From Squalus acanthias (lineage: Eukaryota), in contig CM059427.1 in assembly GCA_030390025.1 (NCBI GenBank), forward strand, positions 57,660,001 through 57,724,000: DNA of 64,000 nucleotides, written 5' to 3'. Shown here piece by piece: positions 46,578 to 46,775 of this stretch. Position 1 is the first letter of the stretch; the number at the start of each line of letters is the position of its first letter. The notes beneath the pieces were generated by a model. That model searched no databases, had not been told where the DNA came from, and saw nothing but the letters and a program-made list of their open reading frames with translations. The position numbers were made by a program, and so were the translations under genes.

Positions 46578-46775
46578 GATATAAATGTGAGAAGTCGCAC
46601 AACACCAGGTTATAGTCCAACAGCTTTATTTGAAATCACAAGCTTTCGGAGCGCTGCTCCTTCGTCAGGTGATTTCAAATAAAGCTGTTGGACTATAACC
46701 TGGTGTTGTGCGACTTCTCACTTTTGTCCACCCCAGTCCAACACCGGCATCTCCGCATCATGGATATAAATGTGA
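46578..46775. mobile_element. Penelope-like element remnant (inverted + direct pseudo-LTR end, tail) with 13-bp TSD
   Basis: TSD gatataaatgtga at 46578-46590 and 46763-46775. Perfect 53-bp inverted arms at 46587-46639 and 46669-46721. Hammerhead core followed by AATAAA, as is typical of PLE termini. Tail at 46722-46762. Confidence 0.88.
46637..46671 (-). ncRNA. Minimal type I hammerhead ribozyme motif (PLE-associated)
   Basis: Minus strand reads CAC-CUGACGA-A-GGAGC-AGC-GCUCC-GAAA-GC-UU-GUG: intact catalytic boxes, 5-bp helix II, palindromic minimal helix III. Predicted cleavage between 46640 and 46639. Confidence 0.8.

Follow-up and report, generated by a model that had tools for sequence, protein, structure and literature searches.

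A hairpin insertion between identical target-site duplications

The window, a stretch of 64,000 nt from Squalus acanthias, carries a short stub of a Penelope-like element (PLE), described as a 185-base hairpin, between two copies of a target-site duplication (TSD). Element positions are numbered from the predicted hammerhead cut, position 0 being the first base 3′ of it (46669 in the direct arm) and negative positions lying upstream in the element. Comparisons with published work refer to passages of the papers cited. The features of the insertion are:

46578–46590, no strand: left TSD copy, 13 bp; the empty site of X6, X7 and X10 has this sequence once
46591–46672, minus strand: inverted tail-less arm, from element +48 (at most +52, counting the bases that overlap the TSD) to −33
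46636–46672, minus strand: predicted minimal type I hammerhead motif, from sequence features and covariation
46669–46672, no strand: junction microhomology of 4 nt, common to both arms and equal to the two strands of helix I
46669–46721, plus strand: direct arm, element 0 to +52, its first base being the one just 3′ of the predicted cut
46722–46762, plus strand: one-sided tail, 41 bp, ending in the ATG that opens the PLE ORF of full units
46763–46775, no strand: right TSD copy, 13 bp, identical to the left copy

The two TSD copies agree at 13 of 13 positions and enclose an insert of 172 nt. The inverted arms (46583–46639 and 46669–46725) are 57 nt each and 98% complementary, with a spacer of 29 nt; the outer 4–8 nt of the left arm fall within the left TSD, whose final 4 nt also match the element, likely as priming microhomology. 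These coordinates bear out the order of TSD, inverted copy, direct copy, 41-bp tail and TSD that a sequence-only reading of the window had proposed, and 46669 is indeed the base following the predicted scissile bond, where that reading had placed the start of the direct copy. It had also described a 3-nt GTG microhomology at the junction; the microhomology stands, but its length is 4 nt, because native copies have TCAC before the hammerhead core. The true break of the direct arm could therefore lie anywhere from 0 to +4.

Contigs of three other, related organisms (X6, X7 and X10) join 46577 directly to 46763 and retain one TSD copy, the empty site that the same reading had suggested looking for, and its proposal of a recent insertion is thereby upheld. 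In a second sample of the same organism (X5), the contig reaches 16 nt beyond the left TSD into the insert and is too short for a bridge.

A predicted minimal hammerhead in the inverted arm

On the minus strand (46672–46636), helix I pairs 46672–46669 with 46639–46636 and is followed by the core CUGACGA (46668–46662), an unpaired A (46661), a 5-bp stem II (46660–46656 with 46652–46648) and GAAA (46647–46644); after the GAAA come a palindromic GC, a CUU triplet and GUGA, and the predicted cut falls between 46640 and 46639. An Rfam scan of the whole window at the gathering threshold returned no match, and the motif was assigned from the minimal-hammerhead features described in PMC4209133 together with covariation across subfamilies. 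It combines a CUGANGA/GAAA/NUH core with helix I, stem II, an unpaired base after A9 and palindromic helix III positions. Across 17 variants picked to span subfamilies, pairing is kept in 98% of 153 cells, and changes on both sides occur in helix I in 6 of 17 rows and in stem II in 2 of 17, although the variants are related and these events are not independent. One subfamily carries U4 to C in the hammerhead core (L040, L049, L101, L111, L122 and L123) and offers a natural control for a cleavage spike.

The evident parent is an abundant Penelope-like element

The autonomous RT plus GIY-YIG partner sought in the sequence-only reading turned up as a PLE with the same terminus, and the stub's evident parent is a 3.1-kb tandem RT plus GIY-YIG Penelope-like element. 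At L212, two hammerhead-plus-tail repeats are spaced 3,136 bp from each other. They flank an 877-codon frame, the first ATG of which forms the end of the tail and which shifts near its own end. This frame matches RVT_1 (E 2e-09, above the Pfam cut-off), and at L211 the C-terminal part matches GIY-YIG (E 0.00085, 20 bits, below the Pfam cut-off of 22.6). A CX4CxxC motif was read from the L212 translation in the linker that joins RT to EN. According to PMC8557442, a zinc-finger-like CX2-5CxxC linker at this place is a mark of Neptune, and Nematis has the same linker; the parent's linker thus appears Neptune-like, by a motif common to Neptune and Nematis. The family has the hallmarks of EN+ PLEs, namely a single ORF with RT followed by GIY-YIG (L212 and L211, the GIY-YIG match being weak), a tandem arrangement forming pLTRs (L212) and, at 60 of 88 loci, an inverted 5′-truncated copy plus a one-sided tail, which measures 41 bp here compared with 30–40 bp.

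Exact matches to a 32-mer of the tail number 32,808 in the 3.7-Gb genome, and those to the motif spanning 0 to +26, which we count as arms, number 72,963. The window copy is an ordinary dead, protein-free stub of this very abundant PLE, and alone it proves nothing.

Inverted arms with fixed outer ends and scattered inner junctions

Loci were collected with a tail-only pattern and hence regardless of their junctions; a junction-based query gave look-alikes only. The first 90 of the 100 tail-anchored loci listed, all within the first 8.4 Mb of contig C1, yielded 88 loci after removal of L055 and L106, which duplicate L047 and L105. For the direct arm, a start beyond about −530 means only "long", owing to the limit of the alignment window. 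An adjacent inverted arm was present at 60 of the 88 loci, and TSDs measured 12–13 bp in 46 of the 65 scored. The outer ends of the 60 inverted arms ranged from +32 to +66 (median +55), with 54 of them at +50 to +61, while the inner junctions scattered; microhomology of at least 4 nt was found at 9 of 60 junctions. Arm lengths within a pair were coupled (Spearman 0.39, n = 60), and paired arms were discordant at variant sites in 2 of 36 cases, compared with 27 expected under random pairing.

From the 12–13-bp TSDs, the fixed outer ends (the tail end and about +55), the variable inner ends and the derivation of both arms from one sequence variant, we infer two priming events, one per target end, on the same RNA or on sister RNAs. 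A single cDNA that folds back and primes on itself would dispense with the second priming event, and self-priming on an antisense template was proposed in PMC3846280. The shared variant bases are also what such fold-back would give, and 10 of 60 arm pairs end no more than 2 nt apart, some of them on palindromes. However, of the 60 pairs, 32 have a tail-less arm that extends beyond the tailed arm in the upstream direction and 18 have one that falls short of it, whereas fold-back of a single cDNA permits only one of these, and the start-site ends with an extra G described below fit a sense, capped template. In vitro extension of both target strands with element cDNA has, moreover, been reported for an Anolis PLE (PMC11167929). 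We give fold-back a very slim chance and retain two-end priming.

Several observations on these loci stand apart. Both arms end on the same palindrome (at −6, −22 or −67) at L056, L133, L097 and L040, and a class with a "palindrome at the inverted junction" was described in PMC3846280. In long pairs, the two arms often stop at points hundreds of bases upstream that differ by no more than about 20 nt (for example −331/−343 and −363/−380; L052, L122, L101, L128, L099 and L103), suggesting a shared template end or cDNAs in step. Nearly the same spot of other repeats was reused at 18 of the 88 loci, in six groups with shared flanks (L040/L048/L096/L101/L112, L033/L034/L046, L049/L059/L120/L123, L058/L143, L060/L115 and L108/L125); the flank of the first group resembles what we take to be CR1-type ORF2 sequence. 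Target preference is possible, and some of these loci may be duplicates of one event.

Arm ends pile up at a putative capped start

Most short arms end 30–45 nt upstream of the predicted cut, at a TATA/initiator site: 57 of 148 unselected arms end at −45 to −30, compared with 6 of 148 at −2 to +5. All 16 long copies have TATATA at −63 to −75, and about 30 nt downstream of it lies a TCACT or TTACT resembling an initiator. Counting a single variant, 1,233 arms genome-wide begin at the initiator A, and in 80 of the 100 matches listed (hand count) the base before this A is G, where the native base is C. Alternatively, the partner arm could supply the extra G as its final base, but the pattern also admitted partners ending in A or T, and these are nearly absent. 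An extra G opposite the cap occurs with other reverse transcriptases, and our literature search for a cap-derived extra G found no paper. The pile-up about 36 nt upstream of the cut is thus likely run-off at the capped start of uncut RNA, and the same arrangement of TATA and initiator is found in a rotifer pLTR (PMC3846280).

Window-type junctions recur in both polarities

The window's exact junction is rare, with 109 exact matches compared with 32,808 tails, and 40 near-identical copies of the whole 172-nt layout exist, of which those sampled have their own flanks except in duplicated regions. Both counts suit a mobile non-autonomous mini-family, which the sequence-only reading had proposed. 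Such a hairpin would have arisen once and would spread as a unit with an inherited junction. Yet among 30 sampled matches of the junction motif, 23 were of a plain microhomology type, and in these the junction lay on the tailed arm in 11 and on the tail-less arm in 12, with 9 hammerhead loop variants, including those of other subfamilies, rather than the one structure expected from one master. The inner junctions of unselected copies are scattered, the stubs have no TATA box, and by eye no sampled copy showed a second layer of inversion. A spreading mini-element is therefore barely credible, and to judge from these variants window-type junctions are repeated independent events.

A modest spike of arm starts at the predicted cut

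Arm starts were counted genome-wide with patterns that required the element sequence from position p through +26 and, directly before it, three non-consensus bases. At p = −4, −2, −1, 0, +2 and +4, the positions counted, there were 69, 127, 150, 255, 123 and 51 matches, respectively, which bears out the genome-wide peak at the cleavage site that the earlier reading had called for. Under a flat model, correction for the pass rate of each pattern and for chance extension gave rates of 160, 190, 203, 699, 256 and 144, the model assuming base frequencies of 30/30/20/20, whereas the junction-side bases are in fact A-rich. The corrected rate at 0 is 3.7 times the mean of −4, −2, +2 and +4 and 2.7 times that of the highest neighbour. 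Because the patterns for −4 and +4 forbid A beside the start and so undercount, the fair controls are −1, −2 and +2 (ratio 2.7–3.7). With +2 as background and 40% of the position-0 matches discarded, 153 were left compared with 93 expected. The pattern for p = 0 leaves out the window's own junction class (109 matches). Position-0 arms amount to about 1% of the 72,963 arms, roughly 3-fold over the neighbours after correction.

An independent pattern (1,321 matches) was tallied by hand on 90 rows, these being 100 listed rows minus 7 indel variants and 3 tandem duplicates. It showed a broad hump, with 39 of 90 starts at −1 to +2 over 17 positions (−3, 7; −1, 10; 0, 11; +1, 7; +2, 11; +5, 8). The spike at 0 is modest.

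A Tx1 element was considered as a source of the spike and rejected, as nothing but PLE sequence recurs in the upstream flanks of the 16 non-inverted position-0 loci.

Composition of the position-0 junctions

The first 70 of the 255 position-0 matches were resolved at locus level into 50 with an inverted partner, 9 simple truncations, 4 small insertions and 7 others. At the 50 inverted junctions, the overlap was 3–4 nt in 11 and at most 1 nt in 36, many of them with untemplated bases; the 9 simple truncations adjoin the TSD and have no partner arm to supply microhomology. Among the 100 matches listed, the base before position 0 was A in 84 and G in 16 (hand count, from a pattern that allowed only A or G), and 18 rows carried the second helix I variant (hand count). 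Partner arms ended at −1 to +5 in 19 of the 50 loci, compared with 6 of 148 unselected arms at −2 to +5 (Fisher p 1e-8); adding the excluded window junction class would lower the former to about a quarter, against 4% of unselected arms. Since the lengths of paired arms generally go together, two arms that both end at 0 are no specific sign of cleavage; co-ending partners show a shared template end, not its cause. Controls for partner arms at −4 (0 of 15 at −1 to +5) and −2 (0 of 14) were rejected, since their patterns exclude most such partners.

Two smaller classes were seen. In L186, L224 and L243, all of them among the 7 other loci, position 0 is joined to sense-strand ORF sequence (about +193, +625 and +780), and two of the three also have an inverted arm ending at about 0 to +4; these joins look as expected from a template jump from the RNA end, or from circular RNA closed at the cut. 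In L185, L191, L230 and L241 (4 of 70), insertions of 1–4 nt lie exactly at the predicted cut in an otherwise intact hammerhead and could be cut-and-rejoin or template-switch scars.

Taken together, the features of the position-0 junctions fit an uncapped RNA 5′ end at the predicted scissile bond, and hammerhead cleavage is the probable cause of the spike. If all templates were instead uncut RNA, reverse transcriptase stalling at the folded hammerhead and joining through helix I microhomology would have to produce it. The window junction coincides exactly with that microhomology, as does the plain type that prevails among its sampled matches, and 9 of the 70 position-0 loci pair the same 4 nt with the initiator's TCAC; the Anolis PLE hammerhead was dispensable in vitro (PMC11167929), and cleavage by minimal hammerheads is weak (PMC4209133). 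If the enzyme stalled at the base of helix I, however, the peak would be at +4, where the rate was the lowest (51 matches, from a pattern that undercounts), and the junctions with an overlap of at most 1 nt and those without a partner arm are at odds with joining by microhomology. We consider an explanation without any cleavage unlikely, but by no means far-fetched.

Position 0 might also be a real RNA 5′ end made in another way, through a minor start of transcription, by a protein nuclease or by an exonuclease that halts at the structure, as the run-off features (blunt joins, untemplated bases and template jumps) reveal an end and not its cause. Against this, the extra G is absent before 0 (16 of 100, compared with 80 of 100 at the initiator, among the matches listed), which argues against a capped start, and in both helix I variants the end matches the predicted scissile bond to the exact base. 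The chance of such an origin seems slim, and self-cleavage by the hammerhead remains our preferred explanation of the spike.

As to the proposal that the reverse-transcribed template was a ribozyme-cut RNA, it gains from the genome-wide peak at the predicted cut but finds no support as a general cause of inversions, given how few unselected arms end at −2 to +5 and how many at −45 to −30. The window copy itself is ambiguous, because its junction equals the 4-nt helix I microhomology and could form without cleavage; it needs none, because microhomologies of at least 4 nt are common at unselected junctions. Its derivation from cut RNA falls slightly short of an even chance.

Proposed two-end priming with run-off at capped or cut RNA ends

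We propose, with a probability of about 65%, that these insertions arise by priming from both target ends and run-off at an RNA 5′ end that is usually capped and occasionally hammerhead-cut. Both ends of a staggered DNA cut would prime reverse transcription near the front of the element RNA, synthesis of each cDNA would continue to the RNA 5′ end and run off there, and the two short products would be joined head to head. As a rule, that 5′ end would be the capped start, which lies about 36 nt upstream of the cut and is marked by the TATA box at about −67, the initiator-like TCACT and the extra G before it. The minority end would likely be the uncapped end left by hammerhead self-cleavage, seen in about 1% of arms, of which roughly two thirds to three quarters would lie above background. 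In the window copy, one arm ends near the start site (−33) and the other at the cut (0), and the two may have been joined through the 4-nt helix I complementarity; alternatively, microhomology-guided trimming of uncut RNA would account for it. For the Anolis PLE, two internal RT start sites, double-strand cutting and a predicted dimer have been described, and no RNA-seq reads began or ended at its hammerhead cut (PMC11167929).

Whether PLE hammerheads cut in vivo, and for what purpose, is presented as an open question in PMC4209133 and PMC8557442, and PMC4209133 states that in vivo evidence of cleavage by the minimal PLE hammerheads was lacking. Our literature search, covering titles and the starts of abstracts, with few subscription journals, turned up no paper that places PLE junctions at the hammerhead cut; the genomic and RNA ends in Fig. 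S2 of PMC11167929, subscription papers and Repbase/Dfam entries could be relevant here. We lean towards reading PLE insertions as a fossil map of RNA 5′ ends, in which the main peak with its extra G would mark the cap site and the second, uncapped spike germline self-cleavage by the hammerhead. If this is true, it would amount to in vivo evidence of cutting by minimal PLE hammerheads and of the cut RNA still serving as template; cutting would take off no more than the cap and the first 36 nt, and would not free unit-length RNA. More than 70,000 near-identical arms let junction statistics replace RNA end mapping and name the bond to assay, and they suggest that cleavage is rare among integrated templates. 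The known layout of inverted arm plus tail is thereby tied to two fixed priming sites and to run-off at the RNA 5′ end. The insertion itself is of a known kind; the value lies in the family-wide spike, which makes the open question testable.

Comparison with known systems

In twin priming of L1, cDNA synthesis starts from both target ends, and microhomology joins the products into a 5′ inversion; the second priming site is wherever the target matches the RNA. In the present family, by contrast, the second site has a fixed place near +55, the two arms are copies of one stretch and most insertions carry an inversion.

The closest likeness is to insertions of EN+ PLEs (PMC8557442, Fig. 2; Pen2a of Adineta vaga, PMC3846280), which share the TSD, the inverted arm, the direct arm and a one-sided tail of 30–40 bp, as well as a pLTR with TATA, a TCACT initiator and a hammerhead, and a tail that runs into the ORF start. 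The TSDs differ, at 12–13 bp here compared with 8–10 bp, and whereas those papers describe the layout, the base-level distribution of inner junctions is not given in the passages compared.

The predicted hammerhead resembles the minimal type I hammerheads of metazoan PLEs (PMC4209133) in the unpaired base between 9 and 10.1, the G10.1–C11.1 pair, the palindromic 15.2–16.2, the 4-bp helix I and the many variants per genome; unlike them, the Squalus family may offer an indirect genomic trace of cleavage. Poseidon_Ac of Anolis carolinensis, studied in vitro, also has two internal RT start sites bounding the tail, which the two fixed outer ends here match, and both DNA strands are cut and extended, as we deduce here from genomic copies (PMC11167929). 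Its minimal hammerhead is protein-assisted and its ORF starts inside the hammerhead, whereas the ATG here lies about 91 nt downstream and the linker is Neptune-like. In that system, according to the same source, insertion did not require cleavage and no RNA ends appeared at the cut, while here genomic arm ends spike at it.

Short, protein-free, hammerhead-bearing and PLE-derived, the stubs recall non-LTR retrozymes (bioRxiv 10.64898/2026.07.22.740005; PMC7229834), which are arranged head to tail with one hammerhead per unit, whereas the present copy is a head-to-head stub with one hammerhead and no sign of spread as a unit. As with the HDV-like ribozyme of R2 (PMC3774820), the predicted cut position here appears to mark genomic 5′ junctions; R2 also forms variable junctions via microhomology when the cut lies at the element end. 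The ribozyme and the element class are different, however, and cleavage makes the normal template in R2, whereas here it would account for about 1% of arms.
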